NCBI GenBank assembly: GCA_973895155.1
Contig: OZ316891.1
Span: 11,654,771 to 11,718,770, forward strand
Source of the DNA: Marsupella aquatica
Taxonomy: Eukaryota; Plantae; Marchantiophyta
Length of the DNA: 64,000 bases
Direction of reading: 5' to 3'
A program made the position numbers and the translations under genes. Positions 8,101 through 34,307 of the stretch are shown in pieces. The number at the start of each line of letters is the position of its first letter. Positions within the stretch are counted from its first letter, which is position 1. Below the pieces are notes generated by a model. The model was not told where the DNA came from. It did not search any database and saw only the letters and a list, made by a program, of their open reading frames with translations.

Positions 8101-11100
8101 TTTCTGGGGAGATATAGTATAAAAATGGGACAAACAAAATGATCAGATCTCATGACAATCATGATGACCGAAAGCCAGACGATTACGACAGAATGCTGTA
8201 CCGTGTGCACAATGTGGCAAAGCTCAGAAATAATCATGTGAATGATGAGGACGTTCTGTACCAAATAGATAAAATACCAAAGGGGGCTAGTGGCCAACTT
8301 GCACCCAGGGAAGAGAGCAAGGCAGCAAGCCACGTGATATTGTCCTCGAAAAACTGTGCTGTCAGTGTGAACGACGTTTTGCGTGTTCATGTTTAGCACT
8401 ATGACATTCTCGTCAGTGCATCCAGCACACGTTTACTTTCTTTAAAGGGCTCCTTATTTGATGCCACAAGAAATTCCCCCAATCGGTCTGCAAGCCAGTT
8501 GTGTGGCTTGCTAAGGAAGGGTTTCCTTCTTGGAAAAGGAATTCCCCAAACATCTAAATTGTCTTCTTAGAGGTGATGATAGTCTTAGGCTTAAACAAGA
8601 GTTTCAAAGGTTGTGTGTGGGTCAAGGAATATCTTATTTCACACTTCAAACACGCTGCTTGAAGGTTTAAATTTCTTGATAAGTGCAACAAATAGAAAGT
8701 TTCACTCTTATCAATCATTATAAACTACCCTAAAAACATAATTTCTGTACCTGCAGTACAATTTAAAGTAGATATTGCATACTCAATAAGTGGAAGGACC
8801 AAAGGTACTCACGACCAGCTTGCACTTAGGGTGGCTTTAAAAGAAAGTGCGGGCACTTGTGAACTTCTTTGCCCAAAATAAACTGGAGAGCTCCGCTTAT
8901 TATTTCAAATATAGACTCCATACCAAAGATCTTTTGAAATGAAATTCAATAAACTCAAATCCCATGAATGAAAGAGTCAAAGTTTAGAAATGTTTAGACC
9001 GAATGCTCAAGCCAGGTGGTCTAAACTTCTAGACAAAATAAGCACCACATTAGCATTTACTTGGGCCCACTGTTTGCCATGTAGGATTGGTAGACACCAT
9101 ATATGAATGGGCCCCCAAGTTCTTGTAAAGCCCACTGCAGCACTTTCCATTCATTACATTGTCTACTTAGATTTTATCTTAAATGATGTCATTGTGCCAA
9201 AAAGGCAAAAATGCCAAACCTGGAGATAGGGTCCCAATGACAAAGCGGGCCAATAAAGGGAAATGGCCCCAAGAAGACCAAAGAGGCCAAACAAGCCAAG
9301 GACCCCCCACAACCAAAAATGAGCAAAGACAAAGACCAAAACAGGGAACACACTAAGTAGCTGAGAAGACTAACGCCTTACTAGGCTGAGAACCCAGGTA
9401 GATCTCTGGAGTAAACCACATAGAAGGATCCCGAACATGAATCTTTCTAGAGGCCCTAAAACCAACTGCTTTGGCCCTCTGAAGTGCAACCAGGAGTGCA
9501 ACAGATTGACGCACCTTTGTCAAAAGAAAGTGTTGAGGACAGATACACGAGGGAAAGGCCTCCACGCAATACAAAAAATTGCACAGGTCGGAGGAACTGG
9601 TCGGATGTAAGGTTGAGAGCACCAAAAATCTTAGAGCAAAAGGGTAGAAAAGATCTCTGGGTAGAAATTTGCATAGGCTTTCTCCTTGAGCTGGGCTGCC
9701 TTGGCTACAGCTTGTCCAGGCCTCGGGGTCCAGGCACATGTTATTGTTCCATGGAGATATGGTGCAACAATGTGATGAAGAGGAAGGAGCTCAAACAAAA
9801 GGGGGGCCATCAAGGACTGGCAGATAGTCAAACTCCAGAACAAGTCCTAGCACAATTTAAGAGGCAGACCCAAATAGAGTCAGAAGGTGCCTCAAAGAGC
9901 ATGCTAGAAAGGGTGTGATGCTGTATGCAATCAGAAATCACTTGCTGAACACGATTTGAACTGTGTAAGACTCCCGGTAAGACTACCTCCATGAAGGCTG
10001 GAACAACAGCCTGCACAACCTTGAGCAAAAGTGATAGGGCCTGGCCAAGGCAAACCTGAAATGGGAGGACCCGGCCAATCCTCCACCCCCATGACATGGT
10101 CAAAGAGGATAGGCTAAGATCCGCAATGAAGCTAGAGGCAAGGGTAGGGACCACCAACGCCCTTGGAACTACTGAGGAACGCACGAGGAGCCATGGAGAC
10201 AACTGATGAAAGAACCATGCCACCATTGCAACAAGGCAGGGCAGCCTGCTTGGCAACAAACAAACCATCCTCTTTGTCAACTAAGGGCTCCGGGGCCAAC
10301 AAGGTGTCCAAAGCTCCCCATCAGAGTGGTGATAAAGGATGAGAACAAGGACAAAAACAAAGTGGGTGGTATCATGCACTGAAGATACAATGGGCACCAG
10401 ACGAAGCACTGGACCAGTATCATGAAGCAATCTGAATGTCGCCAAGAGCTACCAACTGGTCAATGTGATGAAACACCACCACAAAGGGCCTGAAACAATA
10501 CAACTCACACACAACAGCAGGCCAACGCCAACCGCCATCAAATACCAACATACACCAAACGAGCCTAGTCCGACAAAGCACGACACTCGGCCCCACATAA
10601 TAGAAACTAGTTGCCGACCCACGAGGCCAACCGTTGGCGGCCAAAAAGTCAAGCTAAAACGCCTTGCCGAGCACCAGCACCAAGGCAAGGCCCAGTCAAG
10701 CCAGCCAAAGTACAGATGCCAGGTGGACATAGGGACCCAAAACACATCAGCGAAGGATGGGGTCCGACCGCATGTGTGGCCACCAATCTCAGGTGTGGCC
10801 ATAGGGCTGCGAGGTCAACCTCTTGGCGAGTGACCTCCCAGGAACTCCCCCAGCCCTGTGGGAGGGCGTTCCAGCAAAGTTGGGCGCAGGGTTGGACTTG
10901 CACTTGAGTACCCCGGACAACCAGCAGCTTCGCATGCACTCCCGGCTCTGTTCAATCTTAGAGGGAATGAAAGCAAGACAATGTGCCTGCAAGGTCTTCT
11001 GGAGCTTATGCCAGACTTCTATGATAGGCCAAACTGATGGAAAGAATTGGCAAGATCTATTTACGGACCCCATGAGAGGTCTCTTCCAAAATTCTTGGCA

Positions 11101-11452
11101 CCAGAGTGTGCCATGTCAACAACAACCGCAACAAACAAGACTCATCAATTTTGTGAATCAAACTTATAGTTTTCATTCGTGTTTGTGTCAATTTGGGTGT
11201 AAATTGTGGGACACCATGCCATAAAAAGAAAAGTAAAAAATTAGAAATGCAAAGAGCAAGACTGTTAAAAGTGTCACTATGTAACAATTTTAGTTACGTA
11301 TCCAATTTTTATACTTAAATTCAAAGATTTTTAAAAAATATCTTTCATATAATAAATAATGAATAATAACTAACTTGATAACTTCCTTGTTAAAGGGTAA
11401 TTGGCTCTTGGAGTAAGATTTCCGGCCCTTTGCAATTAAGGTAAACTGCTAG

Positions 11453-11855
11453 CCATGGCCCGAACTTGAACTCAACGAACTAATACAATTTATTTGATCG
11501 AACATACATTGATCTGGTTTCAAATGCAATTGCCACAGATTGAATTTTGACTCTCTTAGCTTGATAACCAGGTTGTCCAACCTGCAAAGCAAAGTATTCC
11601 TACGGCAGCTGAAGGAATGCCAAACTGCCAACTATGGTCCGAACTGGAACTCAACAAACTGATACAATTCATTTGATTAGACATTAATCCAATTTCAAAT
11701 GGACTTGCCACAGATTGAATTCTGACTCTCTTAGCTTAAGAATTTGGTTGCATGTAGCAAGAAGACATGATTTTGACAACTACTTAATTGTGATAACCAC
11801 ATTGTGAACTCCTGCAAAGCAAAGTGTGGCAGTTGAAGGAATGCCAAACTGCTCA
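11453..11855. repeat. Tandem duplication, ~180-bp unit, two copies plus a partial third
   Basis: ATGG(C/T)CCGAACT(T/G)GAACTCAAC...TTGCCACAGATTGAATT(T/C)TGACTCTCTTAGCTT occurs at ~11455 and ~11635. CCTGCAAAGCAAAGT...GAAGGAATGCCAAACTGC occurs at ~11581 and ~11811. Confidence 0.8.
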
Positions 11856-12635
11856 GGCCATTGCTGAATGGGTCCACAATGATTCTCTGAAAAAATCTAA
11901 TCTAAAGAATGCAAGCTTTAAAATCTATCTTATTTGTCCAACACAACATGACTACCAGCTTCCCTTCCTAATCAAACTTCTCTCTTCTCTAAGCTTAAGC
12001 TTTGCCATTCTCCATTTGATGAATAGTTGCGTCAAGGTGATGAGGCTATTAACCTTTAATTCAAAACTTGTCAAAGTCGGACTGCAGTGAAATCTCCAAA
12101 ATTTCCAATTATTTGAAAGTATGTTGACAAATCGGGCGACACATTTTCTACAAACATGACTTAGCTACTAGAAAGCTTAGATCACAGTATTCATTAAAAC
12201 TGGAAATTTAAAAGTCCAGATTGTGATCCTCAAATTTACATTCTTGTCTCTAAAAAGTCCATTAATTTTGCTCCAAATAAACAATTTTTCAAGACTAAAT
12301 ATACACTCTTTTTGGTTTAAAATTACACTTTTGCACTCCAAATTTGATTTTAATCAATTAATCATAATACAGAAATTATTAATATTAATTGTATTTGAAA
12401 TTAAATAGATAAGTGACAAACATGTATCATTTGGTCAAAAACTCATGATTAAATTCAAAGTGAGATTAATCATCTCATTTATCATAACATATATTCAAGG
12501 TTGGCTAGCCATAATGTCGATCCTACTCCAATGGTCAAGCTAGTGTAAAGTCCAAAGTAGTTCTATGACCTGTGAAATAGAAAAATGATTGCATGACTCC
12601 AATCTTGTGTCCTACAATGTACAGAAACATAATGA

Positions 12636-13708
12636 TTAATCATCTAAAATTTCAAATTCTATGCCTCCATGAATATGTCTACATGACTGATTTGAACAAG
12701 TGAGTTGCTCTCCATTTGGGTCATATAGTCTGTCACAAGTGCAAGTGTCTTTGGGATAACGGTTTTTAAACTTAGAGGTGAGATCCCTAGTCTTTAGAAC
12801 TTCCCAGACAAATCGGCGAGGATTTTCTCTGAAGGGACCTGCATAAGACTCGCCCAAACAGTTGTTGACCACATCTTTCATATCATCTTCGGTCAGGTTC
12901 TCAAATGTAGGGTAGGATTGTACCATATCCCTCACTTCCCAACATATCTCATCTCCAGTGACATCCAAGATGGTATACTCAATCTTGGAACGCCAAATCT
13001 TACTTCCCCACTTATGGGAAAGTAAATCATAGATTGCAGCATTACTTTCACGGTCATCATTTATATTAACAAATGACCAAAGTGGATTGTTGACAGATAT
13101 ATATTGTCGGATGTCATAAGCCTTCCACAATTTTCTAAGGAATGACCAAAGTATCTCTGGTAGAAAAGTGTCACTCTTGGCAATGTGTGAGAAGGGAGTT
13201 GGGAACAAACCACTATACTGTGGATTTGCAAAAGCCTTCACTGGAGAGTCATCAATAAGTAGAGTGTTTGTATCATCATACTTGTCTCCAAAATGACTCC
13301 ACACCACACGCAAATCCTTCAACATAATATTTTCTTTCCCATCTGCTACGTCCGGTCTTTTTATGCCAGTATCAAAAGCATCTTCTTGTGTGAAAACAAA
13401 TTTAAATTGCCTCCGCTCCTCTTCTTTGAAAATCAAATTCATCATTTCATTAGTTCTTGGCCTCCCCGCACAAGTCCACAATGCGACATCAAAACCTTTG
13501 AAAGCCACCTCCAAAAATTGGTGCAACCCTGGCCTTTCCACGTACATGAAATTGAATCCACCCCGTCTCCCCCAATGCACACCCCGCACAGTTGTTGTAG
13601 ATCTTAACGGTCCCGAGCTTTTTGTTTTGACGCAATCCCAACAAATTTTGTTCAGGTCCAAAATCAAGAGTTTTCTTCTTATATCAGAGTGCAATTTAGG
13701 AGTGAAAT
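12636..13708 (-). CDS. FCP1/NIF-family HAD phosphatase-like domain exon (last exon of the cargo gene)
   Basis: LLILDLN (motif I, DxN variant), YVERPGLHQFL, VALWTCA, LKDLRVVW, NTLLIDDSPVKAFANP: the motif series of NIF/FCP1-like proteins. Confidence 0.8.
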
Positions 13709-14026
13709 CTGCAAAGATCCAAATGAATCAAAATTATATCTAAAAGATATATAAGAAGAACTTAGGGTCAAACCTGGATCGACCTGACCTAATGGGGAAA
13801 ACAAACATATCATTTTTGAATGTCAAAGCATTTTGATATATCAATGTAGAAGTACCTTGCTCAAATGCTTTGTCTTGGACCAGGGTACCGCTTGCTGAAG
13901 GTAGACCAATAATATCCTTCGATGGAAGAGATGCTATGACAAAACTTTGGTCTGTCCATATATGATTTCCAAACATAATATTTTAGATTATTGTGAAAAA
14001 TAGAATAACAAAACCATAATATTAAC

Positions 14027-16310
14027 CTCCACTACTAAATGACCCATATTCATCTATCATTTTATCACCTAGATCACTTTGGATATCAGAATTGACGCCA
14101 ACAGGAAGCTGCTCCACCAACGTTGGCGGCGCAAACACTGGACTCAATCTCAATTTGTCTATTATGTAATCAGGTTTGACCATTAACTTAGGCGCATCCT
14201 CCAACGTTTCTTTCAATCCAACTTTAGGTCCATTTCTCCAAATGAAATGAGTTGCATGACGGACTGTCTTCATATATCCTGTTCTACCTATCTCAGATCC
14301 AGACTTTTGAGACAAGCGTAATATTATGGGGCTTCCGCTTGACATCCTTGTGAAGACCAATTTATTCCCTGACGAACAAAATTGAGGAGACTCGGAACAA
14401 GTTGAAGCACCTGCCTCTTCAGCTTCAACATTTGTTGTCTCTCCAAGTGGAAGGTTGTCTTCAATCGCTTCTGCAATACCAACTTGTAGGTCCGTGGTGG
14501 GTGTAGTGGCCCCAATATTCTGCCAACCTACATCCAATGTGCACGATACCTGCGGTCTCTCAGGATGCAATTTTGATACTTCAGGGTTGAGAGGATTTGA
14601 TGGAGGGTCGCTCTCAGGGCGACCCGACATCACTATGTTGAGTTGAGGTAGCCCTTCAACACCGTAGGTAGTAATGCCAACCATTTCTGTTGCTCGAGCA
14701 TCCCAATTTCCGCCAAAATCCTCCTCTACCATAGGACTTGAACCTCCATCGTCATGCTGCAACTCACCATCCTCAAGGTCAACTCGCTGAGGGCCCGGTT
14801 GGGGGTTGTCCATAGGCCCGCAAAGAACACTTAGATGAGCTCTCCTAGGACCATGTACTCCCATCCGCTCTTTCATAAGGGAGGGAATCCTGTTGCACAA
14901 AACCCTTGCATATGCTTGGGTGAAATGGTGTTCTTGCAAAGTGTCTGAATAGACAAAACAATCTCGGTATGCCAACAAGGCCACCTTCAAAACCTGCCCT
15001 CCTGAAAAAAAATCGAGGACAGTCTCCCCCTCACCGGAAAAACATTCAATAATATTTTTGAGCATGTGTCGGGGCTTGGCATGCGGATTGACAAATCCTC
15101 CTCGACTTCCGACCATCTCAAACATTGGAGCTTGCCGCAATAAATCTGCCATATCAAATGCGGGAGATTGCTCCTCTGTCTCATTCTCTTTTCCCTTGCT
15201 TTTCTCTTGCTTGTCAGCCTTCACTTCAATATTGAAATCACAGTCAACATCGGGGTGAAAACTAAATTTTGAATTGAACTCTGGCTTAAACAATTGATTC
15301 CAATCAAAATTGTCTTCACCTATAATTCCATCAAAAATGACCTGCTCAATCGCTCCTGTAAAAATTAAGCCCTGCGGATTTGGGCGATCTTCCCGATCAT
15401 AACTCCCGTATTCAACATGGATGGCCAAATGCTTTTTATGTCCTAATTTCCTTAGGGCACTTAAGATGTTGGCTGGAAGTGGCCCTGGATGAGTAGTCAT
15501 GACAACTACAATGGTTGTATTCCTTGGCAACTCCACAATATATTGGAGCAATACAAAAATTTCCGAATCTGTCCATTCATGTTGTTGTGCCCTACTAAAA
15601 TCAACAATTGCAAGTGGACACATTGGCGTCGCCTCTTCCAATAACTCTGGCGTGGTTGTCTTCATTAGATTCTCACTGAAGAACGTCAAGAAAGGCTCTG
15701 TTCGTGTGCGCCCAACTCCACCAAATTGTTTGCAGTACAACCCGTCTAATCTCACCATTAGACTTTGAGGGAAAGCCTCCTTCACAATGTTCTTCCTTAA
15801 TAAACTGCTAAGGTAGGCCTCCCCAACTGCTCTTCGCAATTTTGTCAGCTCAAGTTGAGATCCCAAGGCCGGCATGATGTTGACCACCGAAGCCCACGAT
15901 GTCCCCCCGGGAAACTTCTCCTTGTGCTTCTCAACAAAGTACTCAACAATGACTTGCTTCAATTTAGTCATTACCTTGATGGTATGAGCCATATCTGGCA
16001 TTGACACCAGATCCATCTTGTTGGAGGCATCTTTCTTGAGAAGTGCTTTCTTCTCATAAACCGCAGTCAATATATCAATGATATCCTTAGAGCTGATCTC
16101 CCCTTCAAAACATCTAAAAAGAGTTGACGGGACCAGCTTTAGTGGCCGCGGCCCACCATACTCTCCTGCCCCGCCAGGGAGCTTCCCTGCCAACCAATCC
16201 CAACAAACAGTTTGCCATAAATGGAAAAGCTTATCCTCAGCAAAGAGCAACCAAAAAATGGCTTTCAAGCTCGACTTTCCCATTGTTATCTTTGCGAGGG
16301 CAAACCAATC
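14027..16310 (-). CDS. Exon containing a beta-class amino-methyltransferase-like (N6_N4_Mtase-like) fold, catalytic motif degenerate
   Basis: VNPHAKPRHMLKNIIECFSGEGETVLDFFSGGQVLKVALLAYRDCF resembles the HPxxKP..L..II...S..GD.VLDPF.GSG...AA...GR SAM-binding end of beta-class MTases. The upstream PLAIVDFSR lies where the (D/S)PPY motif would be expected. Confidence 0.6.
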
Positions 16311-16522
16311 TTGCATTTACATTCATCCACCAAAAAACATGTTAGATGTTTAAACTTAGAAACTTCAACTTCTCTGCCTCGCCCCTAGAGCGAGGCGAAG
16401 AAAATGACAAAGCCATATGAAAATGGTTGGGGCAATCATTGTATTCATCATTCAATTTCATTTGGGTCGCTCTAAGAGTGAGGCAAAATTAAAGTACAAT
16501 TCCAACTAATGAAAATGTTTAC

Positions 16523-18039
16523 CTGGTATTTCTGGTTGTCTGTACTTTGGTTTGTTCCAATTCCTGGACGCGGTGGTTTCCCACATTCATCAAATTGCCT
16601 TCTCGCATGAACAACTGTCTCTAGAAAACAAGACTTAAACTGCATGGTCTGATTTACTGCATTTGAAAGGCTCGAGTGCTCGACCAAAATTGCCCTTGGA
16701 GTGAGGTCTGATAAGATCCTCGCTTTCCGATATTGGAGTTTGCTAGCAAGATCAGTTAGCTTGGCATCCTTGTCTGCCCACCCTTGAATCCATTGTGCAG
16801 CCTTTGCGGAATGTTGCCCACTGATTGCAAGAAATTGTATCTCTTGCTTCTTAACACCAAACAAAAATTGCTTCCGATCGCGTGCGGTATTGTCAAAATG
16901 TAACAACTGCTTAGTGCGCTCTAGAAATGGAATCAAATCTGCAACATGTGGTTCCTGGCCAGGGTTTTTCATCATTGATTTTGCTATCTCTAAGGCATGA
17001 GCCTGGTTGAACATCCGATACACAAAAATTGCAGTAGGCGGAAGAATACTTTTAACCGGGATTTCAAAAACCTCCCTGATTCCAAAAGTGTAGTATTGCT
17101 CGATGTTCCGCAAAGCTTTCTGCCCCTCCAATACATCTCGTTCCTCTGGTGCATCTGTTGGGCATGTATCATCCTCTGGATCCAAGACCAACCTTGCTTT
17201 TGACGCTGACACGGGCTTTGATTTTCCAATCTTGGCCTTCTTCTTGGGCTTCTTGTCGGAGTCCTTATCTTTCTTCTTCAACGCCGCCTTTTTTCCTCTA
17301 GTACTTCCTTCACTCCTTGGCTCTCTTTGTTTTCTCTTCTTCTGTGTTTCAGCCGACGTCATTTCTTTGGCCTTCATCTTCATCTTCCCCTTACCTCGAT
17401 GCTTTTCTTCCTTCTTCTTTTGAGTTGAAATCCACTTCATGCAAGCATCTTCGTCAAACTCATCAGAGAAAATAAAACTCTTATCAATTGCTTGCTCATA
17501 TGAAAAGCGTGCTGTTTCAATCATCCTTTGGACAACCCATGTGTTAGGAAGATCTATAAGGTCCGGATGATCATGCATGTACCGCTTCACAGAGAGGAAT
17601 CCAAAGACAACATCAACCCCACTCAATTTGAATCTTCCATGCCTCTCAAGAACATCCTCTGCAGTGAACCCATCTGGAAGAAATCCCATTGAACAAATAC
17701 TAGCCTCCGAGCGTGCTATCCACTCCACGTTGATAATTGACGAGTACATCTTGATTGGCAAGTAAAGTCTCATCCACTGAGATCTTTCTCTGGATTCAAT
17801 AATGATTGTAACATTGCGGTTATCACTGCAATTTACAAGGACCACAGGGCCCAACGCAACTATCTTCTTGTCGTTCATTGTCTCAGCAGTGATTGCCTTG
17901 ATACAAATCATTGACAAGTCATTCTCCATGATCCCTACTTCAAGTGCCCACAAAAATCCTGCCTTATCTTGTCCAGGGAAAATAAAGTCCTTGACATCCT
18001 CGGCCATAATATTTAACTCTGGGGATCCAAGTTGTTCTC
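16523..18039 (-). CDS. Exon with a Lys-rich segment and a ParB/sulfiredoxin-like domain
   Basis: FEIPVKSILPP...YRMFNQAHALEIAKSMM...QFLAISGQHSAKAAQW resembles the ParB/Srx fold with a hydrophobic-x-G-Q-H motif. It is preceded by a basic, NLS-like stretch (KKRKQR, KKPKKKAK). Confidence 0.55.
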
Positions 18040-18124
18040 CTGGAAAAACAAATTGAAACGACAAACATTAAAGCAAGAGATCTTCTGTGTTGCCTCGCCC
18101 CTAGAGCGAGCTGGAGACAAGGTC

Positions 18125-18487
18125 TGCATCAACAAACATGTGGGTTGGGTCGCTCCTCGAGCGACCCTAGGAAAACTTAAATCAAGGTCCAACCAACAAC
18201 AAATTTGGATCGCTCCTGGAGCGACCCTAGGAAAACTTAAATCAAGGTCCAACCAACAACAGAGTTGGGTTGCTCCTGGAGCGACCCTAGGAAAACTTAA
18301 ATCAAGGTCCAACCAACAACAGAGTTGGGTCGCTCCTGGAGCGACCCTAGGAAAACTTAAATCAACGTTCAACCAACAACAAAGTTGGGTCGCTCCTGGA
18401 GCGACCCTAGGAAAACTTAAATCAACGTCCAACCAATAACAACGACAAATCTTAGGCAAGATAGGGTCGCTCTAAGAGCGACCCTTC
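18125..18487. repeat. Tandem array, 60-bp unit x5 plus partials, each with the palindrome GGGTCGCTCC-T-GGAGCGACCC; inside intron 1 of the cargo gene
   Basis: Near-identical sequence lines at 18181, 18241, 18301 and 18361 show an exact 60-bp period. Confidence 0.95.
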
Positions 18488-18980
18488 AAAGACTAACTTG
18501 CATCAATTGTTGAATCATACTTACGTGGAACTGTGATATGAAATCCCCTTGAGGCGGCCAAAGCGGATTCCACCGACATCTTTAGTAAAGTGTCTTGAGA
18601 ATCATACTCAAAGATTTTACTAGAATCAAAGTTCAGGGACTGCCCAGAACTAGAAGTGCTAGTAGAATCATCAGAACTAGAGGAAGTGGCCATTGAAAAA
18701 TGCCTCACAAATGTTTAGATGACATGTGGCAACCTAGTATACAAGAATGCCTATAGCTAGACCACACCACGGAGCGAGGCTACAGAGCAAGGAAAAAAAT
18801 CTACTATGAGCAAGGCAAAATCAACAGAGCGAGGCAAGAAAATCTACTATGAGCGAGGCAAGAGGGAGGAGGGAAACCAGGGCAGCCGGTCAAGAAGACA
18901 ATGAAGGAGGAGATGGATGCAAGAAGACAATGAGGCAAATGAGGTAATGTCTTTGCCTTTTGCCTTCCTATACCCTCACT

Positions 18981-19033
18981 GCCACGGCCGATCGTACGCC
19001 ACGGCCGATCCTATGCCACGGCCGATTGTACGC
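18981..19033. repeat. 17-bp tandem repeat x3 (GCCACGGCCGATC/TGTAC-like) in the divergent intergenic region
   Basis: gccacggccgatcgtac gccacggccgatcctat gccacggccgattgtac. Confidence 0.85.
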
Positions 19034-20019
19034 GACCTTACGCAACCCAGCCACTTGCTCCCTTCCACGCGCCTGTGAACTCGCAACCCTCATAATGACC
19101 TAGCTGTACGGGTATCCATAGATTTTGAAAAATGATGCACGGTCGTACGGGTGTCCACAGAATGCCGATCAGAGTAATCAGACTTTCGGCCTCTCGATGT
19201 TGTGAACCCCTTCAGGACAAACTTGGCTAAAGCTTGCTCACAAATGGTATAAAGCTCTACAGATCCAATCATTTCTCTCTTTTGTATGGCGCGTGCGTTT
19301 CTGGTCATTGCTCACTCTCGGTCTTGCCCTTCGGCCCTTGTCTATCTTGCTTCTGTTTGGTGACTGATTCGACTGACTTGGACATTTATGGTTACAAGAG
19401 TTCGTGCAAGGAAAGTCCTGTTTCAAGTATATTGCATTAGTTTTGGTGTCCTTGGTTGGCGACACGTCTTCTATAGTCCTTAAGAGAGGTATTACTTCAT
19501 CTACCATTCTCTTAATTTCTTCTCTATGATATCCACCAAATATTTGGCCCTAGCTTTATGACCTAACTAAGCCCTAGATAATGTAGGGTTCCTAACGACA
19601 CACTCGTCTACCCACACGTCTACACACTTCAATGGTCTAATTCAGCTTAATCATTCCCCTGATTTATTCCTCGGGGGTTTCACTTCCACAAAAATGGCAT
19701 ATCACGTGCGACGAAGGATAGGGTCATTTTATTGGTTCTAAGGGAAGACTTAAGAATTTTTGTAGAAGAACAATAGGGTCTTTTAAATTCAATTTTGAGA
19801 CTTATAAGAACATTAGGGTCCTTTTAATCCAATTTTTAGAATATTCCAAGAATATTCCAACTTTATAGGGGTTAATAAATAATTTTTTTTTCTTACATTT
19901 TAGGGGGTCCGAGGCCTAAAAACGTCGCAGGCGATGGGGAGGTCCCCATATAGTGAGACCCCTGAGATTTATTCATTTCCATATTTTCTCTTTTCCTTCA
20001 CAATTCTTGCTTCTCCAGG

Positions 20020-20456
20020 ATTGTGCTCATCTTTTCTTGCTCTCCCCTTGCCTCGCTCCAAGAGCGTCATGCCCTTGCCTCGCTCCAAGAGCGTCATACA
20101 CTTACCTTTCATCAGGAGCATCCTGCCCTTTCTTTTCTCCAAGGGCATCCGCTCTCCATTGCCTCGCCATCAGAGCGTCCCTCAACCGCCTCGCCCCTAG
20201 AGCAACCCTCCATCGCCTAGCCCCTAGAGCGACCCTCATTCACCTTGCCCCTAGAGCGTCTCTCCATCGCCTCGCCCCTAGAGCGACCCTCATTCACCTC
20301 GCCCCTAGAGCGTCCCTCCATCGCCTCGCCTCTAGAGCGACCCTCCATCGCCTCGCCCCTAGAGCGACCCTCCATCGCCTCGCCCCTAGAGCGTCCCTCA
20401 ATCGCCTCGCCCCTAGAGCGTCGCAACCTTGCCTCGCTCCAAGAGCGTCCCTGACC
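20020..20456. repeat. Tandem array, 27-bp unit (CGCCTCGCCCCTAGAGCGACCCTCCAT), about 15 copies, upstream of the transposase
   Basis: Visible directly, and gives the 9-aa periodicity (RLAPRATLH) in the overlapping spurious ORFs. Confidence 0.95.
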
Positions 20457-20629
20457 TTAGAATCCTGTTGTGTAAAGCCAATACACATAAACTCCCAAAT
20501 ATTTTTTTCCTTTAAATTGAATTCAAATGTTTAGATCTAATATTGTAATATCTAGAGTAGTGCTTATCAGTATGCACATCAGCTGAACAATTTTTAAATG
20601 TTTTTGGATGCAGAGATCCTTTCGCTACC

Positions 20630-23600
20630 ATGAGTAAATTTATGCGAGGGGATGAAGTTTCATTGATAATTGATGGTTTTGAAGTGGCAATTGGGACCAT
20701 CCAAAAGGTTGATCCCAAAGACACTATACACAATATTTGTCTTGGGAAAAATCGAATTGGGGTCCTTATCGAGAGGTGTCTTGAAACATCTTGTCCACTA
20801 CCATTTCCATCCAAAACATCATCGAGCCTAGGTGATGCAGTTGACTCGTGTGTGATCTGGGATTCTTCCTTGGCATATTTGAGGTCTTCAACATTGCCGA
20901 AAAGAACCGCTGTGGATGGTGTTCCTACTCCAGTGGACGGGGATGAAGGATGTTCCGAAATGGATGTTGGTGGTAAAGGAGGCAACCTTGCTGAAGGAGA
21001 GGAGGTTGAGATGTTCATTTTAGATGAACTTGTATCAAAAGGAGTTGTCTTCAATACCAATCCAATGGACACTTGTCATAGTGAACGACTCGGTGTTGGC
21101 CGTGTCAGTATACAAATATCAGAGGTTGTTCAGGGAAATAGAAAATTACCGTATCCGCATCCTGGAGCTGACACAGTGCAAGAGGCAATGCAGACTTGGG
21201 TAATGTGGGATGTTGCTGATGTTTCAAGAAAAGGCTCTATTCGAGGTTCTGGCATGTTTGTTGGTGCAAACCCGGGTGCAAACCTGTTTAAGGATCTTCC
21301 ATTGAAAGATTTTACAATGCGTTCCAACTGGATGGCAGAGGAAGTTGACTTGTATGATGTTTCTCGTTGTCGTAAGGTTGCGACAGGGGTTATCACAGTT
21401 CATTTTGAAGCAGGTGCTGTTGATGATGAACTTCTTGGTCCAAAGCATGTGGGTGTAGCTGTTGTGAATATCAACGATCCCGCATTATTTCCAAATATCC
21501 GTGCTGGTACTCCAGGTTTGGTGAGGTGGGAAATCAAATCTTTGTTGTTGATTTCATCTCAAATGTTTCTCGGGGATATCCTTGAGAAAGGTTCACATGT
21601 GTGGATAGAATCGGGTCGAAATGAGAGCGACCCGGATTTGGATGGTGATGGGAAACCTCCAAAAAGACCTTATAATTTCATTAGAAGAACCAAAGTGGAT
21701 CTGGAGGAGAAAAAAAAACATTTGCAATCAAGGGCGCTTTTGAAAATCACCGAGGAGTCCATTGATTCCATCCAAAGAGAAGGTTGTTGCAGGTTAAAGT
21801 GTTGCTTGAACATGCCAAGAGAGGACTTGGAGGCAATGAGGAGGGAATTTCATGGAATGTCAAGTGACAACAAACAAGTCATATCTTCAATCTTTTTGGG
21901 TGTAGAGAAGACCAAGTCAAGAGAAAAGGATTTTTTGTTCTAAAGGGACGTGTGGTTTGTAAGGATGCGTTCATAAAAATGCATGGGTTTAGTACGGCAA
22001 AGTATTATGATTACAAAAATCAGTACGAAGCTGGGTGCACAATTGGTTTCCATGGAAATCAAGGGCAACATAAGACACGATCAAGCACCTTGCATGCTCG
22101 TGCATTGTTGGAGTCCATTTTAATCCAAAATGGAGAACCAATGCCACATCTTCCCTATGGTGGGTCCAACGGCACCGATACTGTCAAATATCGACTCCCA
22201 TCATGTTTCACTAAGAAGGAGATTTTTCAAGAGGTATTTGCAAAGATGGAATTGGACGGCTATGCTAAGGTTACTGAAGTTACCATGTACAACATCTGGA
22301 AAAATTCTTTTGATAATTTTGACTTTCACAAGGGCAGTGCATTTGCCAAGTGCACATTTTGCACTGAGTTCAAAGATCAATTGATGCGGGAGAAGAGAAA
22401 AAAGAGCGTGCAGAGATTGAAGAGAAAAGAGCACGACATCTTCATGAACAAATGTCAAGGAGATATGTTTACTATGCTCATAGGGTTCTTGCAAAGAAGG
22501 ATCCTCAAAACTATCTTTGCATTATTCATGATAAGATGGACCAAGCCAAGACTTGGATCCCCAGATTGGTCCCCACTCCAAAATCTCTCTCTGGTAGTGG
22601 TCAACCTCTGCCCATTGCCCTTACTGGGATGTTAACCCATGGAAGGGATCCAGGAGTGTATGCACACTTTAGTTTGACTGGCCTTTGGCCTGGAGATGCA
22701 GACTTCACTGTGACATCTTTGGCCAAATGCCTTCGAGATTTGGAGGATTACACTGGAGACAAAACGGGAGACATGCTTGAAGCTTTCAATTGGAACGCAA
22801 CTAGGCCAATATTTCAGTCTCTTTTGGACTTTGAAGCATTTCAAGCGGGTTACTTGGAACCCAAAAATGTTTCAATTCTCAAGTTTCAAGGCCTTGATGA
22901 CGGTTAGGAGAGCCAAAAAACCAGCACAACAGATGCTGGTTCTAGAGTTGATCCTGAGACTACGAGCTCTTTCAAGCCCTTACCAAGGCACCTAACATTG
23001 CAGATGGACAATTCAGGAAAAGATAATAAAAATCAATATGTGATGGCATTTTGCAACGAGCTTGTTAGCAGGGGGTGTTTGAAACTGTGCAAATGTCATT
23101 CCTCATGGTTGGCCACACCCATGAGGATGTGGATGCACTATTTTCTCAAGTATCCAAACAGGTCAGGTACAAAGAGGTTGCTACCCTCCTTGCGTTGATG
23201 GCTGAGGTTTGGGAGTGTGAAAGCATCCATCCCGTACCACGATTGATTCAGGAGGTTGCATCTTACAAGCACTATTTGAAGGCTTTCCAAGTGAAAGAGA
23301 TTGAAGGTCACTCAAAACCAGTGGCATTTCTATTCTCCATGAGGGATAATGTGCCAGTGTATCAATATAAAGCACATGTCAAACAACCTTGGCTTCCAGC
23401 AACAGGGAGGTCAATTTGGAGAACTGATCTCATCACAAACACACTCATTTTACCGGAGGGCCAACCATTTGCAAAACCTATATCGGGGGAGGTACAAAAG
23501 AAAGCCGAGGAAATCATCCCATTCCTTAATCGTTACATTGATTTCTTGAGGAAAAGTTGCAAGGATGAGACCTCTGCAGCATACCGCGAGAGATTTCCTT

Positions 23601-24361
23601 TGGTGAAATATTGGGAGAGGCTTGTTATGGCACTCTCTGAGGCACTTACAATAGAAGGGGAGGGAGAAAGACAATTGTCATTGACAACTGATTTCTGGCC
23701 AAAGACTAACCATGGCACAGGTTACAAGGTGATTTTGGGGACCTCTCAACCTTCAAGTGAACCTACTCAAAATTCAGAGATGATGGACCTTCAAAATGAG
23801 TACATGGAAGAGATGGAAGGTCAAGCTGCACCCTTCGTTGGTGCACGAGAAGAGCGAGAACTTGCACGTTGGATTCCCCTACAAGATATTCAAGAGGGTC
23901 ACTTTGTGTTTTTACGTCCAGAGGATGAATGGGAGCAAAAAAATGGCAAAGGGCGTTTCTGGTTAGTTCGAGCTTTGGGTGGTGTGGATCCAAACCATGA
24001 GGTTTCTTCACTAGATTTGCAATTTAGTGAAGGGTCTTCTTCAAGGTTTTCTAAGAGCATTCACCTAAGTAGCATTCCTAAGCGGTATGCTCCTATGTTC
24101 CAAGTGCAATGGTGGAGGCCTAAACATGGTAAGCATGATGCAAAGGATGATGTTCGATACGAACGTTGCTTTCAGACCACTAAGACTTGGGAGCTAGATC
24201 CTGGGTTTAACACTATCACTCAAAGTTGGCAGTTTGCAAATTCTGCAATGTATGGGTTTAAGTCAGGTGCCAAAGAACAAAATATTATGGATAGAGGTTT
24301 GACAATTCCCAAGAATGTTTTGAAAACTCTCAAAACTTACATGGCAGGTATTGATGAGTAG
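20630..24361 (+). pseudogene. Frameshifted DDE transposase, Sola-like (DUF7869-type), with three N-terminal TNP1/En-Spm-associated-like (DUF8039-like) repeats
   Basis: Fragments 20630-21943, 21952-22635, 22452-22907, 22998-23198 and 23075-24361 carry CCRLKC, VCKDAF, CTFC, IIHDKMDQ, QMDNSGKDNKN and FLMVGHTHEDVDALFS. The VAxG.I...(D/H)...LG...V.I...LPxP...V.W unit occurs three times at the N-terminus. Confidence 0.75.
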
Positions 24362-25775
24362 AGTGATAGAGTGGTCACAAGTGTCCACTATGTAATGACT
24401 TGTAGGTAGGAGGGTCAAGTTAATTTCCATGCATTTGTCTAAAGTAAGTGAGAGAACAAGGCTTGCAATCAAATACTCTATGATCTTTCTTAGTTATTGA
24501 ATGGACTTTTTGATAATTATTGTATTTTTGTCTTAGTACATATATTTCTAGAAAATGATGGCAGTTCTAAGTTACTTGGATGTCATCCTAGTTTGAATAT
24601 AAGATATTTAACTTGTCTAGCATTTCATTGTTGCTTAGATAATGATCCTATCCAAGCTAGATGTTTTGAGTATAGATGCTATCCAAGCTTATGTGTTATT
24701 ACACACGTTCTATCTATTTTCAACCAAATGAACACTTTTTATCACCCAAATGTTTTTTAATATTATCCAAATTAATATTTTCTTTGCCCAAATGTCTATT
24801 TTTTTGCCCCAAATTTATAATTCATGATGCTTAAATTTTCATTTTTCATCCTTCAAATTTACAATTCTTATGCCTAAAAGTGTGTTTTTAAATGCCCAAA
24901 TTTCCAAATCTTCTTTATAATTCCACTTTTAATGAATATAGTGATTTAGGGTTTGTAGTTGAGAAAAGCAAGGAGAAAAGCAGACTTCTCAATTAGCCAA
25001 GGGGTCCACTAACTAATTAAAAATGCATTAAGGTTGTCTGGTCTTCAATTCAGGTTCTGGTTCACTCATACCCTGACAAATCAACACAATTATCAAGGAT
25101 TCTATCTCATTATAAACGAACCTTATGAATGTATGGTCTGCTAAGCTAATATGTTTGCCAGCAGGCAAGAGTTGGATGTTCAGGATGACAAAGTATGTTT
25201 TGTCAATGTTTGACAATGTTAACATAATGTTAAAGTCTGTCACTCGTACCTTTATGGGATATACAATAGACCATATATGGTTGACTATACATCCCTTAGT
25301 TAAAAGGGATACCTCCTGTCCTTAACCATATACATAACTATATACATAAAATCAGGAAACCTCCTTCCAATAAGCTGGGCACTTGACTTACAGGCAAGGA
25401 AAAACCCCTTTAATGTCATTGAAATTTGTTTTAATAATTCCTACCAACACTGCATGCAAGAGCTGGTCAGCGGCCCACAACACACTGAAGCCCCCATAGG
25501 TGCTTTAAAGCAAAGCTGTGGGGACCAGCTAGCAGTTTTTTTAGTTGCAAAAAATTGTCAAATTTGCTGAAAAGTCTCAGCCACTGGTGAATAATATTCC
25601 CCAAACTTTGTTGACTTTGATTGGCCAGTTTCCAATCTACTCACAAACTCTATTTTGTTAGAATGTGGTGGTTACCTTGAAATGTAAGGAAATCTAACAG
25701 TAAAAACTTTAGGGGGCAGAAAAGGAAAATAAGTTTTATAATTGGTTGATTTGGCCACAATCAACTTAGTTATTA

Positions 25776-26187: not shown

Positions 26188-27588
26188 TAGTAGCTCCAGA
26201 ATAAAATTACGCACGACGCCTTGCTGATAAATTTTTTCTAAGAGTACTATCAAACACAATCAAAATGAATTCTATTGTCATAAAGCCGTTCGGAACCTTC
26301 TGTGCAAGATCTTCATGCAAGATTCAGAGTCGTCGAATACAACGAGAGACAATTTTCCTCCGCATGGAAACGAAACACGGTGAAAGATTCTGTGAGAGCA
26401 CTTTCTTATTGTGTTGTGTATTTCCTTCAAAAAAGGCGCAGGAATCTCGACTCGTACAGTAGGAGACATGTGTCTTGGGTGGGCAACTTTTGGATTCGGA
26501 GCTCGATTGTTCTAATAATGGAATTGCACTAGTTATGCGTATTGCAGCTTTTTGACCTCGATGACGATTGGAATGCGTGAAGCACTCTCTCTCTCTCCCC
26601 CCAAGGAGTGGGAAGCTCGCAACGGCATCAAAAGACGTGCAGATGTACACAGCGCTGGCCAACCCGAACGCAATGGGACACAGAAGAGTTCGATGGATTC
26701 GATTCTAATGGAATGGGAACGAGCAGCCCCAGGAAGATCCCTGTATTTAGTTGAAATCTCAAAGATATGAGAATCCACACGGAAGGGTTAATTGGGCGGC
26801 GGGATGGAGCCGATGAAAGAGGAGAGGAGAAAAGGAGGAGGAACGGAGAAGCAGAACAGTGGCGAAGAACGAGGACGGACTGGGTAGGTACGATAGGATT
26901 CGATCGATCGATGGAGCCATGAAAATCGATGAAATCCTGAATTCGTCTTCTTACACCCCCTTCTCCGGCTCCGTACCGCAGCTTTATAGCATGGTGCTGC
27001 GGTGGCCTGATTGCGCCCCTCGTGGGCTTGACTTTCATGTTTTCTAGGGAAAGTCGAATTTGCTCGAATGAAGGTGCGCCGTGAGAACAAGTTTGACCTG
27101 CGAGCCAAATTAAGCCTTTAAAGCTCTATGGATTACTACAGTGCAGCGAATGCAGGACCGGCACCATGGCGTCGGAAATCATCGGGTATGGCGCTTTTTG
27201 TCAAGGGCCTAATAATATATTTGGTTTGTTTGAAGCTTCATACTTTCTGGTGCTCCTTTCTGACTCTGTTGAGTGTTCGCCGTCGAATATAAATTAGAGT
27301 CTTAGTACACTTGCATTGTAGAATTACGAGGTTTGCCATCCTTCGTTCCTTACCGAGTAATCAATTCTTCCAATAATTGGAGTCGGTTAGTTCGTCTTCG
27401 AAGTAGCTGACTACTGTACCGTCCTGGGATGAAACTCGAACTTGTCCATTCTCACCAAACTCACCGTTCGATTCTTGTGCAGTAGATGCTACTTTAGGAA
27501 CAGCAGCAGTCTTCTATTGTCACCAAACTCACCAAACTCACTGGTCGATGCTTGTGCAGTAGAGGCTACTCTATCAACCGCAGCAGCC

Positions 27589-30200
27589 ATGACGGCAGCG
27601 ACTGCGCTCGGGCTACTCGTGCTTTTCTTCTTCTACCGATCGGTCCAAGAAGTGCACGGGACGTTCGACAATGTTGGGAGGTCACGGATTGTCGAGAGTG
27701 ATGTCGGGGTGGTCGCAGCTGATCACTTTTTGTGTTCGGACATCGGCGTGGACGTGCTGAAGCGGGGCGGAAAGGCTGTCGACGCTGCAGTCGCTGTCGC
27801 GTTTTGTCTGGGAGTCGCGAATCCCGGGGCTAGTGGAATTGGCGGAGGTGATTTCATGCTCGTGCGCCTTGCCGATGGCCGCGCTGAGGCGATTGATATG
27901 CGAGAGACAGCCCCTTTGCACTCCTCTGAGGTACCACAAACACCCGTTTTTATTCAATTCCTGCGACTAATACAGCGCAGCAATTGAAGTTTGACCATCT
28001 AGACCTTTTCGAGTGCGGAAAAGCAAGATATTGAATTTTCGGACTGATGTCTAGCCTTACTCATGAACGGAGCTTGTTTCTGCAGAGTATGGATGCCAAT
28101 TCCTTCAGTAGTGCTCAGCGCAGCGTAGAAATTGATCGATTTTTAGCTCGTTTTTTCCCGCAGATAGGCAAGACATTGGAATCGTTGGACTGATAACTCG
28201 TTTCTGCAGAGTATGTACGCCAATGATCTCGGAGGAAAAACCGTGGGCGGATTGGCCGTTGGAGTTCCTGGTCAAGTGAAGGGGCTGTATGAAGCATGGC
28301 AAAAGTACGGGACGTTGCCATGGGAGTGTCTCGTGGAGCCGGCCATTAAGCTCGCCGCTCACGGGTTCCCAGTACAACCATTTTTGGCTGCACAGATCCA
28401 GAGTGAGTTGCCAAGCGTCCTCGCAAACAAAGGTTTGAGGGATGTGTTCGCCCCCAATTACGTCCCACTTCTTGCTGGCGACATTTGCTACAGGAAGAAG
28501 TTAGCAGAGACGCTTGCAGCAATTGCAAAGGACGGCTCAGCCGCATTGTACTATGGTCCGATCGCCGAAGCGATGGTTGAGGATGTCCAAGCTGCAGGTG
28601 GTATTCTCACAATGGAGGATCTTGCAAGCTACAGAGTCCTTTTCACGGATCCTGTCATGGCAGAGACTTGGGGGCATACGGTGATTGGAATGCCCCCTCC
28701 TTCGTCTGGTGGTGTGGGCTTGATTCTGGTGAGAAGTTAGCTCCTTTTCATGGCGATTACTCCGATTTCCGCCCCTCGCTCCGTTTCTCGCACGAAGTAT
28801 ATAACGATATTGTTTTCTGAAACAGATTCTGAACATTCTAGCAGCTTTCAAAAACGCAAGTGCGATTAACGGAGATTTGGGTCTACATCACATCGTGGAG
28901 GCCATTAAGCATACCTATGCCGTTCGAGCCCACTTGGCCGATCCTCTCTTTGAGAACATCACTAGTGTCGTGGCTGACATGCTTTCTGCAGATTTCGCTG
29001 CTTCTTTACAGAAGACGATTGCTGACAATACCACCTTCGGGCCAACTCATTATGGTGGAAAGTGAGTCTCTAGGAGTGAATCCAAGATTGATTTCCATTT
29101 TTTAATTTTTATAATGCTGATTTCGATGAAAACATTTGTATGCATCTCCTTAATCCCACATACATTTGGTTTTTGCAGGTATCATCCAATGTCAGAAGGC
29201 GAGAATCATGGCACAAGTCATTTTAGCATCATTGACGCAAATCGAAATGCAGTGTCAATGACGTGCACAGTGAATTATGTGTTCGGAGCAAAATTCATCT
29301 CTGAGCGGACGGGCATCTTGATGAATAACGAGATGGATGATTTCTCAACTCCACAAGATTTGGTTCCCCCTCCTGGTGTTCCTGCAAAACCAAATTTCAT
29401 TATGCCCTATAAACGGCCATTGTCCACCATGAGCCCTACCATTGTGTTGAAGGTAAAATTTACACATATTCTGTCCACAGTAAAGAATGGATGGTAGATG
29501 GATGTTAGTATATATTGTTTTATTACCTAACCCTTTTCTTTAGCTTGTGTACATGTTAAATTCATTTTTGTTTTTTCTTTCTTTCTGTGTTTGTGAGTGC
29601 GTTAAATTAATCTTTGTTTTTGTTTTCTTTCTGCCCAGGATGGACAGATCAGAGCAGTACTCGGTGGGAGCGGAGGTATCAAGATTTTGACCACCGTGGC
29701 CCAAGTTTTGATAAAAATATTGGGAGGATTTGACCCTCTCTCATCAGTGGGTCTTCCAAGAATTCATCACCAGGTTTTTGTTCTAGTATAACCTCATTTG
29801 TCTTAAAATTTATTTATGTGGACTAAATATCATTCTTGTAGTGAACCAGGTTTCATCTTTGGAGTTATCACTCATTTGTCATTGAATACATTCCTTGGTG
29901 ACTAAGAGTTGGTTGTGATAATTGCAGTTATTACCTCATGTGTTATATTATGAAAACTACACCACAGTGAGGGGTGATATCGAAGTGTTACCAGAACACA
30001 CCTTGGATTTTCTTCGTACTAGAGGACACAATCTATCCCAGGAAACCAGTGGTGCAATATGTCAACTCATTATACATGATTTTCCTAGGCGTGGTAAAGA
30101 ACCTAAACATAAACATACGATGAAAAATAAAAGAGTTCATTGGGGAAAACTGATTGGTGTGAGTGATTTGAGAAAAGATGGTTATCCTGCAGCAATCTGA
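27589..30200 (+). CDS. GGT: Gamma-glutamyl transpeptidase / glutathione hydrolase, exons 27589-27930, 28210-28728, 28826-29061, 29179-29452, 29639-29773, 29928-30200
   Basis: GVVAADH..CSDIG, AVDAAVAVAFCLGV..PGASGIGGG.FMLVR, IDMRETAP, VGVPG, PPPSSGG, catalytic HGTSHFSI, NNEMDDFS, KRPLSTMSPTIV, GGSGG, terminal SDLRKDGYPAA. Junctions are GT-AG. Confidence 0.95.
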
Positions 30201-32474: not shown

Positions 32475-33405
32475 TAATATTTTATAAAGGAAGAAAGCCG
32501 GTATATCTTCTCCGATCTTGATTAAAGGGTCAGATCTCCAGAAAACTGGCGAATTCAAGGCAACTTTTTTGGTGAATTTGAGTTACTCCCCCCCCCCCCC
32601 CCCCCCCCTAAATTTTCTTTGTAGCATTCTCCAGTATAGATGTTGGAGGAGGTGAGATTTTCAAAATTTTCCCCTGCCCACTCAGGAATCATGGCCAATA
32701 ATATGCAGTCATGGATGGCCTGGTTTCAACCTGGAGTCGTAAGCTCAGCAAGGGTCTGAGTCACTCAAATCTTTAAATTTATATGAGATACCAAAATGTT
32801 CTGTGTGGAATAAAAAATAAATAAATCTGATATCCATGTCATCCTAGTTAAAGTATACGTTTCCAAGACACTAGGCATGTGCACTTAGGAATCCTATCCA
32901 AACCAAAGTTAGGGCGAAGTTTCCTTTCTTTCCAACAAATACCTATCCATAAACTCAAGACTTTTGTATGTGACACTGTCAGGTTTTTTTAAGACTTTGA
33001 AATCTTCTTACATAGATTTGATTGCCAAAATAGATATCACACAAATCTTTTCTTTCATACTGCTTTCTTCATTTGGAGACTCATTACATACGTCCAAAAA
33101 CAGCCACCAATAATGTCTAGTTATGCAAGTTTATGGGTAAGTTCTTTTTTCCTTGGGAAGGGTTAAGTTCTCTCACAAAAAAGGTCACAACCTTTGCAGA
33201 TCATTCTAACAATAGTCTTCCCAACTTCAAATGGGTGATGGATCACTCTAATTACTCATAGATCAAGCTCACTCTCAGACCCTTCCATTTCCGATAGTGA
33301 AGCTGAGAAGAGAAGAGGTGGAGAGAAGTGTAATAGCCTGTAATTTTTACTCTCACAATCCTTTAGATCTCATGATTGCTTAATATATAGCACATCTCCT
33401 GACTA

Positions 33406-34307
33406 CTGTCTTCCCCTGAACACAACGCCCGGGCGCTAAAAGAAAAAAAAATGTTTTCCTTCAAACACAACATCATATTACCATAACGCCCCGCACAACG
33501 CCCGGGTGTTGTGTTCGAAGTTGGTGTTGTGTTTGAATAGTTGGCGTTGTGTTTTAAATTGCACCCCATGTTTGAGAGATTTGAAGTTGGCACTGTGTTT
33601 GAATAGTTGGCGCTGTGTTCGAATAGTTGGTGATGTGTTCAAAATTGTACCATGTGTTTGAGAGAGATCCTATTGTGTGTTTCATGTTACATTCGAAGGT
33701 GAAGCAAAACTGAACAAAAAAAGCTATCCACAATTTTTGCAGCGCCTGTAGCAATAGTCGGAACAATTTCTGGAGCAAAAGCTCAGAAACACGTACTCGA
33801 CTGAAAGAGCACTCAACAACTTTATCTCTTTGTGAAACTTCTTACGTGAGTGTGCACATGCACAAATTGAGAAATCAGATCAATAATGAATCTCTAAACT
33901 CCTATTCTGACTTATCTACTGTAAATAGGTTCATCAAATTTGTGACAGGCTTTCCTTTTGGTAATAGGATAGAGATCCTCTTGGCTCTCTTGGCTCTGCT
34001 CTCTTGGCTCTCTTCCCTTGTGTAATTTCAGTGTTTGAATTACCTACACATTCTCAAACACTTTCTTTAAGACATCAGTTCTACATATGAATTTTATTTG
34101 TGCTTACACCATAAATTAATCTCCTAGCCTTATACACAATGCCTACACTCAAACACAATGTCAAACTCAAACACAACGCCATTTTTCGAACACAGCGCCA
34201 CAGTCAAGTGAAAAAATCCAAACCTTGAATGTGACAAAATTTGAACACAACGCCTAGGGCGCTATATGCAAACATAGCGCCTGGGCGTTGTGTTCGGGGG
34301 AAGACAG
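33406..34307. mobile_element. Tc1/mariner-type non-autonomous element (~900 bp) with TA target duplication
   Basis: Left TA-CTGTCTTCCCCTGAACACAACGCCCGGGCGCTA and right TAGCGCCTGGGCGTTGTGTTCGGGGGAAGACAG-TA (31/33 match). Many subterminal G(G/C)GTTGTGTT(T/C)GAA / AACACAACGCC repeats. Confidence 0.9.

Follow-up and report, generated by a model that had tools for sequence, protein, structure and literature searches.

What is a gene with ParB-like, methylase-like and phosphatase-like parts doing in the genome of a liverwort, is it one gene, and does it still encode enzymes? The question is raised by a locus on the reverse strand of contig OZ316891.1 of Marsupella aquatica, at 12636-18693 of the 64,000-nucleotide (nt) stretch analysed here (contig positions 11,654,771 to 11,718,770; hereafter the window, to which all coordinates refer). 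A sequence-only reading had joined five open reading frames (ORFs) there into one spliced gene of eukaryotic origin, fusing three domains. Our analysis indicates that this gene is likely the cargo of a DNA transposon present in many copies, about 12.8 kb long and probably of the Sola1 kind. The sequence-only reading had noted neither this context nor the degenerate state of the active-site motifs.

The cargo gene lies head to head with a broken gene for a DUF7869 transposase-like protein, which begins 1.9 kb from the cargo start codon on the opposite strand, and the two share one block of high contig depth, set against a low-depth flank. Over 12203-24945, contigs of the public DNA run X1 are 99% alike, with 1-17 differences each, at depths of 286-349 versus 15 for the flank contig; as depth gives no exact copy number, this ratio is a rough guide to about 20 copies of the element. 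The element is covered in all four DNA runs, and CpG inside it is 0.41-0.55 versus 0.74-0.99 in four other stretches. It could be argued that the gene was domesticated by the host, or is a bacterial or phage contaminant, and lies near a transposase by chance, as its methylase fold is prokaryotic in type and weak phage matches occur (E about 0.03; a phage tblastn search gave weak methylase matches only, and none for the ParB-like part). The depth block shared by cargo and transposase beside a low flank, the CpG depletion, the canonical introns and the many, often broken, homologs in two liverwort genomes all speak against this idea, which is largely refuted already and which we regard as highly improbable. 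The eukaryotic, non-contaminant origin previously claimed is upheld by the liverwort homologs and by multicopy coverage in DNA runs that come from two studies.

Near the ends of the high-depth block stand the 46-nt arms (80% complementary) of an imperfect inverted repeat, probably marking approximate termini; weaker likeness between the arms continues about 250 nt inward. Terminal inverted repeats of Sola elements range from 11 to 1124 bp (PMC10741241). Weighing against our assignment, the 4-bp target-site duplication expected of a Sola element was not found at the repeat arms, and the three candidates about 55 nt further out are at chance level. Neither precise termini nor a target duplication could be located, in part because another repeat adjoins the left end. 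This adjoining repeat, at 11034-12101, is of far higher depth and contains direct repeats (11443-11575 and 11622-11750). CACTA-type ends, considered on account of ACTA(C/G) arms, were left aside: there is no matching duplication, and the transposase belongs to another profile.

The transposase gene is split over four frames. Its frame changes, at 21871, 22397 and 23071, coincide with positions at which one more base is present in related contigs, and a stop at 22905-22907 interrupts it as well. Sola elements encode a DDD transposase; in the product of the present gene, HDKMD, MDNSGKDNKN and GHTHEDVD are candidates for such acidic motifs, and the protein may be Sola1-like. By eye it differs from the first part of the Sola2 alignment (PMC3627910, file S10). 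Over the transposase core, at 21700-24400, depth is 3 to 40 times that of the cargo gene; because of this excess, related transposase families are seen to be far more numerous than close copies of the cargo. Between the two genes, contigs over 19578-20111 are likewise very deep and leave many loose ends, perhaps owing to a small repeat or a low-complexity match.

How much of the cargo locus is one gene? All eight junction sequences of the sequence-only reading are present where it placed them, and its exon total of 5205 nt is correct. Its intron 2 (16522-16311) is real, despite an AA acceptor in this copy. Public DNA contigs of runs X1 and X2, compared over 13680-16560, differ from the window at 26 positions, and the intron 2 acceptor reads AG (16311 T>C on the forward strand) in the majority contigs (depth 293/293 in X1 and 426/426 in X2). 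Because the majority contigs of both runs read AG, the AA is a mutation private to the present copy; with this acceptor mutated and the transposase broken, the present copy is likely decaying. Introns 1 and 4 read, from the sequence alone, as canonical GT-AG introns with pyrimidine-rich acceptors and matching phase. A 152-aa (amino acid) frame at 18013-18471 was rejected as an exon, being the 60-bp repeat within intron 1. The gene could also start at an internal ATG, at 18007.

Protein homologs bear on the same question. A profile search with exon 3 gave 219 proteins at E <=0.001, of which the best 150 were listed, and a word search gave 8 relatives, 3 of them from Calypogeia fissa; 163 homologs were compared in all. 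Having been collected with exon 3 as the query, this set is biased, and many members are fragments; when the sources of 27 were looked up, the named ones came from C. fissa or Riccia sorocarpa and the rest were ENA, JGI or Logan calls. Twelve of the 163 match exon 3 together with the ParB-like part of exon 2, and one of these, the single 1009-aa ORF of P0162 (from a metagenome), spans the ParB-like part through the terminal motif DEYGSF; C. fissa models read FQ|DW across the exon 2-3 junction. Because of these 12 homologs and the uninterrupted P0162, we consider it settled that exons 2 and 3 are one gene. Exons 1 and 4 have no homolog among the 163 proteins of this biased set. Scans of viral, metagenome and prokaryote genome contigs found no related DNA, and hence no homologous junction DNA was seen.

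The third intron is another matter. As first drawn (14026-13991, 36 nt, AA acceptor) it was rejected: a TAA at 13985-13983, two codons past the intron, interrupts the spliced frame, a stop that the divisibility of the exon total by three had concealed. Over 13680-14235 the X1 contig that spans this intron differs from the window at 5 positions, none of them at 13991-13992, 14024-14022 or 13985-13983, so that the AA and both nearby stops stand unchanged in sister copies. From the donor at 14026, five of the nine AGs before the next donor (13952, 13934, 13895, 13874 and 13868) would reopen the frame, giving 1693-1721 aa, and skipping of exon 4 would also leave an open frame, of 1689 aa. Among the canonical acceptors, 13934 fits best by composition (Table 1) and appears compatible with splicing. 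Some exon upstream of exon 5 is needed, because the motif of its NIF phosphatase-like domain precedes the first ATG of the exon-5 frame.

We put the joining of exon 3 to this NIF exon at about even. In its favour, five Riccia sorocarpa gene models run from methylase into NIF, three (P0061, P0116 and P0132) containing the whole domain and two (P0055 and P0093) reaching its first motif. Several observations count against it. The Riccia fusions come from gene prediction and belong to another subfamily, which lacks the exon-3 terminal domain; none of the 163 homologs has all three domains together; and some three of nine acceptors would restore the frame by chance, so that the five seen are near chance level. 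The exon-3 terminal domain is matched in 30 homologs, two of them cut short, and the other 28 all end no more than 20 residues after it, as does ORF B of the window; these 28 include several near-duplicates, many that are unable to show splicing, and three Calypogeia gene models. One protein, P0119, has 97 further residues, without NIF. Searches with ORF B and ORF A found no long fused homologs, which is weak evidence; lengths of 864-1337 aa were covered by the profile search alone.

These endings could also belong to a locus with the same transposon and the same inactive scaffold protein (see below) but with two cargo genes, or with both forms made by alternative processing. Exons 1-3 would then encode about 1330 aa, stopping at TAA 14024-14022, and NIF would have a gene of its own, running from ATG 13976 through intron 4 (about 397 aa). 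Beyond the 28 short endings, the tail lengths vary with no shared donor position visible, the Calypogeia-type tails finish in D-I or D-V, ATG 13976 opens a frame that agrees with the phase-1 donor at 13855, and the first 70 nt after donor 14026 contain no AG. Set against this, the 28 include many simple ORF calls (sources were checked for some), which cannot splice and would stop in an intron anyway; an AG|GT donor lies directly at the stop; the gap from stop to ATG is only 46 nt; and the five Riccia models join the domains, P0093 lacking any Met able to start a separate NIF gene. We regard the two-gene arrangement as a serious possibility, though one clearly short of an even chance. Of the earlier one-gene claim, then, the union of exons 2 and 3 is well supported, intron 3 was wrongly drawn and the three-domain fusion is possible only. 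The sequence-only reading had itself named paralogous copies or transcripts ending at the 16472 or 14022 stops as the sign of separate genes: the stop at 16472 is intronic, and the ending at 14022 is that of all 28 homologs with the full terminal domain.

What kind of protein would this be? The middle part of exon 3 gives a weak Pfam match to N6_N4_Mtase (E 3.5e-5, below the curated cut-off) and a profile match to M.RsrI (E 1.2e-5). A single-sequence fold of exon 3 was unusable (predicted local distance difference test, pLDDT, 38), and a fold model of 15710-14830 was built from 12 sequences. In this model the catalytic part stands ahead of the S-adenosylmethionine (SAM)-binding part, as in a permuted Rossmann fold, and the top Foldseek and VIA matches are all beta-class enzymes, over about 190-230 residues. 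Foldseek found TTHA0409 (E 5.8e-7), and VIA Z scores were 14.1 for CcrM (root-mean-square deviation 4.5, 210 residues aligned), 13.7 for TTHA0409, 13.6 for MboIIA, 12.9 for RsrI, 12.2 for PvuII and 11.8 for rotifer N4CMT. The model thus confirms a beta-class amino-methyltransferase fold, although its own quality is middling (pLDDT 57, predicted template modelling score 0.63). No PDB sequence matches the terminal domain of this exon.

The catalytic signature has gone from this fold. A strand LAIVD is followed by FSR where DPPY or SPPY would be expected; across 44 rows, the window included, the motif IV position reads DFSR, DLTH, DFGR, DFAR and the like, and the canonical [DNS]PP[YFW] occurs in none of 164 sequences, many of them fragments. 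Motif I reads DFFSGGQV against DFFAGSGV in M.RsrI, one residue shorter and with the FxGxG spacing lost. We suggest that the methylase domain is likely catalytically inactive, since motif IV appears lost family-wide and since a change from SPPY to APPA abolishes the activity of rotifer N4CMT (PMC8885841). Two points temper this: the mapping of DFSR to DPPY goes by position after the matching strand, without residue-level superposition, and DFFSGG is conserved in most of 58 rows. Because motif I is so well conserved, SAM binding may persist.

The element also carries a palindrome, TCGCYY-N3-RRGCGA, 21 times, with none in the other 51 kb of the window, the pattern having been drawn from the repeats and the copies not being independent. 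It is found in exon 3, in introns 1 and 2 and in an array before the transposase. An active N4-methylcytosine or N6-methyladenine enzyme with an unorthodox catalytic loop could mark these palindromes, as has been proposed for algal accessory genes. The whole beta-class fold is retained, motif I is conserved, as is the Asp that opens motif IV, TCGC/GCGA sites lie within the palindromes, and the authors of the Ectocarpus (PMC12477816) and Bostrychia (10.1101/2025.02.11.637652) studies propose self-modification. Both prolines and the base-stacking aromatic are, however, absent in every homolog that covers the site, and motif I lacks the FxGxG spacing when set against M.RsrI, which leaves such an enzyme rather improbable here.

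The NIF domain of exon 5 is recognised by Pfam (E 2.8e-16, 60.1 bits versus a curated cut-off of 21.8); its closest solved structure is UBLCP1 (3shq, E 5.2e-8), and exon 5 is about 33-35% identical to the NIF domains of three Riccia models. The catalytic motif of NIF phosphatases is DxDx(T/V); the site reads DLNK in the present copy, and three Riccia models have DVEG there. The last part of exon 5, at 12670-12750 on the reverse strand, encodes a Cys/His cluster, CxC-x13-C-x4-C-x2-H, possibly zinc-binding; the exon-5 tail has no usable Atlas match. The ParB-likeness of exon 2 is only a lead, drawn from an Atlas row, the ISGQHS motif and the known algal architecture. A ParB_N Atlas cluster, 35% of whose members carry PF02195, matches this part at 0.90 with 112 shared features, and a motif [IV]S[GR][QA]HS recurs in 8 homologs. 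Against it, searches of Pfam, NCBIfam, PHROG and PDB sequences gave no match to the ParB-like part. The nucleotide-binding motif of ParB/Srx proteins is GxxR, and at its presumed place, by a placement that we infer, the window and seven of the eight aligned homolog motifs read GQHS or GAHS. Of the three domains first named, NIF therefore stands by Pfam and the methylase by fold with weak Pfam support, leaving ParB as an Atlas lead.

We propose, at slightly less than an even chance, that the cargo gene in its fused form encodes a non-catalytic DNA-binding scaffold that recognises the palindromes of its own element. Beyond the gene structure, each step is our inference. A bidirectional promoter common to the cargo gene and the transposase would lie between 18693 and 20561; the NIF domain would be gained, for a protein of about 1715 aa, by joining donor 14026 to a canonical acceptor; and the lysine-rich linker could direct nuclear import. 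The ParB-like/helical part may bind the TCGCYY-N3-RRGCGA sites, with the methylase and NIF folds retained as binding surfaces, and the protein could aid transposition either by holding the element DNA for the transposase or by shielding the element from silencing. A bolder version, which we think unlikely, would have an old and widespread liverwort transposon carrying a triple pseudo-enzyme (ParB-like, amino-methylase and C-terminal domain (CTD)-phosphatase folds, without catalytic motifs) that binds parS-like palindromes in its own element and serves there as a dock for phosphorylated RNA polymerase II or for chromatin: a land-plant anti-silencing system built of bacterial parts, independently of VANDAL. 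VANC is the name attached to the VANDAL anti-silencing system. We adopt VANDAL/VANC as a functional model, an accessory protein acting on the repeats of its own element; the likeness drawn here is one of function, VANDAL being a Mutator-type element of eudicots.

ParB plus methylase accessory genes are already known from algal giant transposons. In Ectocarpus, Sola1-1_Ec32 carries a 1104-aa ParB-like and N4/N6 methylase accessory gene opposite its transposase (PMC12477816). Compared by description only, it resembles the present element in being a giant DDE element with an imperfect terminal inverted repeat and an opposite-strand accessory gene holding both domains in one protein, and differs in coming from a brown alga, in its 21.5 kb length and shorter protein, in a methylase presented as potentially active and in that no NIF domain is mentioned. 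Plavaka elements of Bostrychia carry PAG2 and PAG3, a PF01555 (methylase) gene and a ParB-like gene that has palindromes, as inverted repeats in tandem arrays, next to it (10.1101/2025.02.11.637652); there the two are separate genes, with SET and 2-oxoglutarate-oxygenase domain partners, in EnSpm/Plavaka elements. A methylase fold kept with disrupted catalytic residues is also found in METTL14 and in the N6A methyltransferase domain of DIRS1, the latter transposon-borne, although the DIRS1 domain is PCIF1-derived (group 2) and sits in a retroelement polyprotein, whereas the present domain is MboIIA/RsrI-like (PMC4738411). MpDN4MT1 of Marchantia and bdelloid rotifer N4CMT are likewise eukaryotic beta-class amino-methyltransferases, one of them in a liverwort, but are active host enzymes with SPPY, in contrast to the motif-less, transposon-borne family described here (10.1101/2021.02.12.428880, PMC8885841). 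Within our literature survey, which covered few subscription papers and no Repbase entries, there was no account of the cassette in land plants, of family-wide loss of motif IV or of a NIF partner.

Table 1. Features of the element and its cargo gene in window coordinates
Feature	Position	Strand	Basis or remarks
Left arm of imperfect inverted repeat, likely at or near left end	12167-12212		46-nt arm, 80% complementary to the right arm
Exon 5: NIF/HAD phosphatase-like domain and Cys/His-cluster tail	12636-13708	-	Pfam NIF, UBLCP1 3shq, Riccia identity
Intron 4, 147 nt, GT-AG, phase 1	13709-13855	-	sequence; 69% AT
Exon 4 (revised), 78 nt	13856-13933	-	54% AT between two AT-rich stretches
Intron 3 (revised), 93 nt, GT-AG; alternatively 3' untranslated region or spacer after TAA 14024-14022	13934-14026	-	76% AT, in frame
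Exon 3: helical region, beta-class amino-methyltransferase fold, acidic linker, 125-aa terminal domain	14027-16310	-	profile, fold and homolog matches
Exon 3, terminal 125-aa domain ending DEYGSF, no known family	about 14420-14037	-	conserved in 30 homologs
Exon 3, methyltransferase fold	15710-14830	-	
Exon 3, helical region	16310-15711	-	
Intron 2, 212 nt, phase 0; two palindrome units inside	16311-16522	-	AA here, AG in sister copies; homologs span junction
Exon 2: N-terminal 212 aa, lysine-rich linker, ParB-like domain	16523-18039	-	
Exon 2, ParB-like domain, motif ISGQHS	about 17128-16523	-	Atlas lead; homolog motif
Intron 1, 458 nt, GT-AG, phase 1; five 60-bp tandem units, one palindrome each	18040-18497	-	sequence, repeats
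Exon 1, 196 nt, ATG at 18693	18498-18693	-	open, in phase
27-bp tandem array of palindrome, upstream of transposase frame	20045-20452	+	repeat search
DUF7869 transposase-like gene, head to head with cargo gene, broken	20561-24361	+	DUF7869 E 1.9e-22 and 1.3e-3
Right arm of imperfect inverted repeat	24914-24959		

Elsewhere in the window, 33404-34309 resembles a miniature inverted-repeat transposable element, with a 35-nt inverted repeat at 94% around short tandem repeats, and a 295-bp tandem repeat (2.4 copies, 93%) occupies 47971-48677. A retrotransposon frame interrupted by stops lies at 40267-44559 (+), presumably of Copia type by its motifs. Three host-like genes resemble those for a gamma-glutamyl transpeptidase (27433-29497, +), an exostosin glycosyltransferase (35836-37257, +) and a condensin subunit (62689-63333, -).

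The algal ParB plus methylase accessory genes have so far been predictions, assumed to methylate their own DNA. The liverwort cassette, with its near-identical copies, candidate sites and family-wide loss of motif, suggests that binding, and not methylation, is what has been retained, and the question can now be put to the test in a group of plants for which genetic models exist. Such copies also inflate the counts of methylases and phosphatases in bryophyte annotations.

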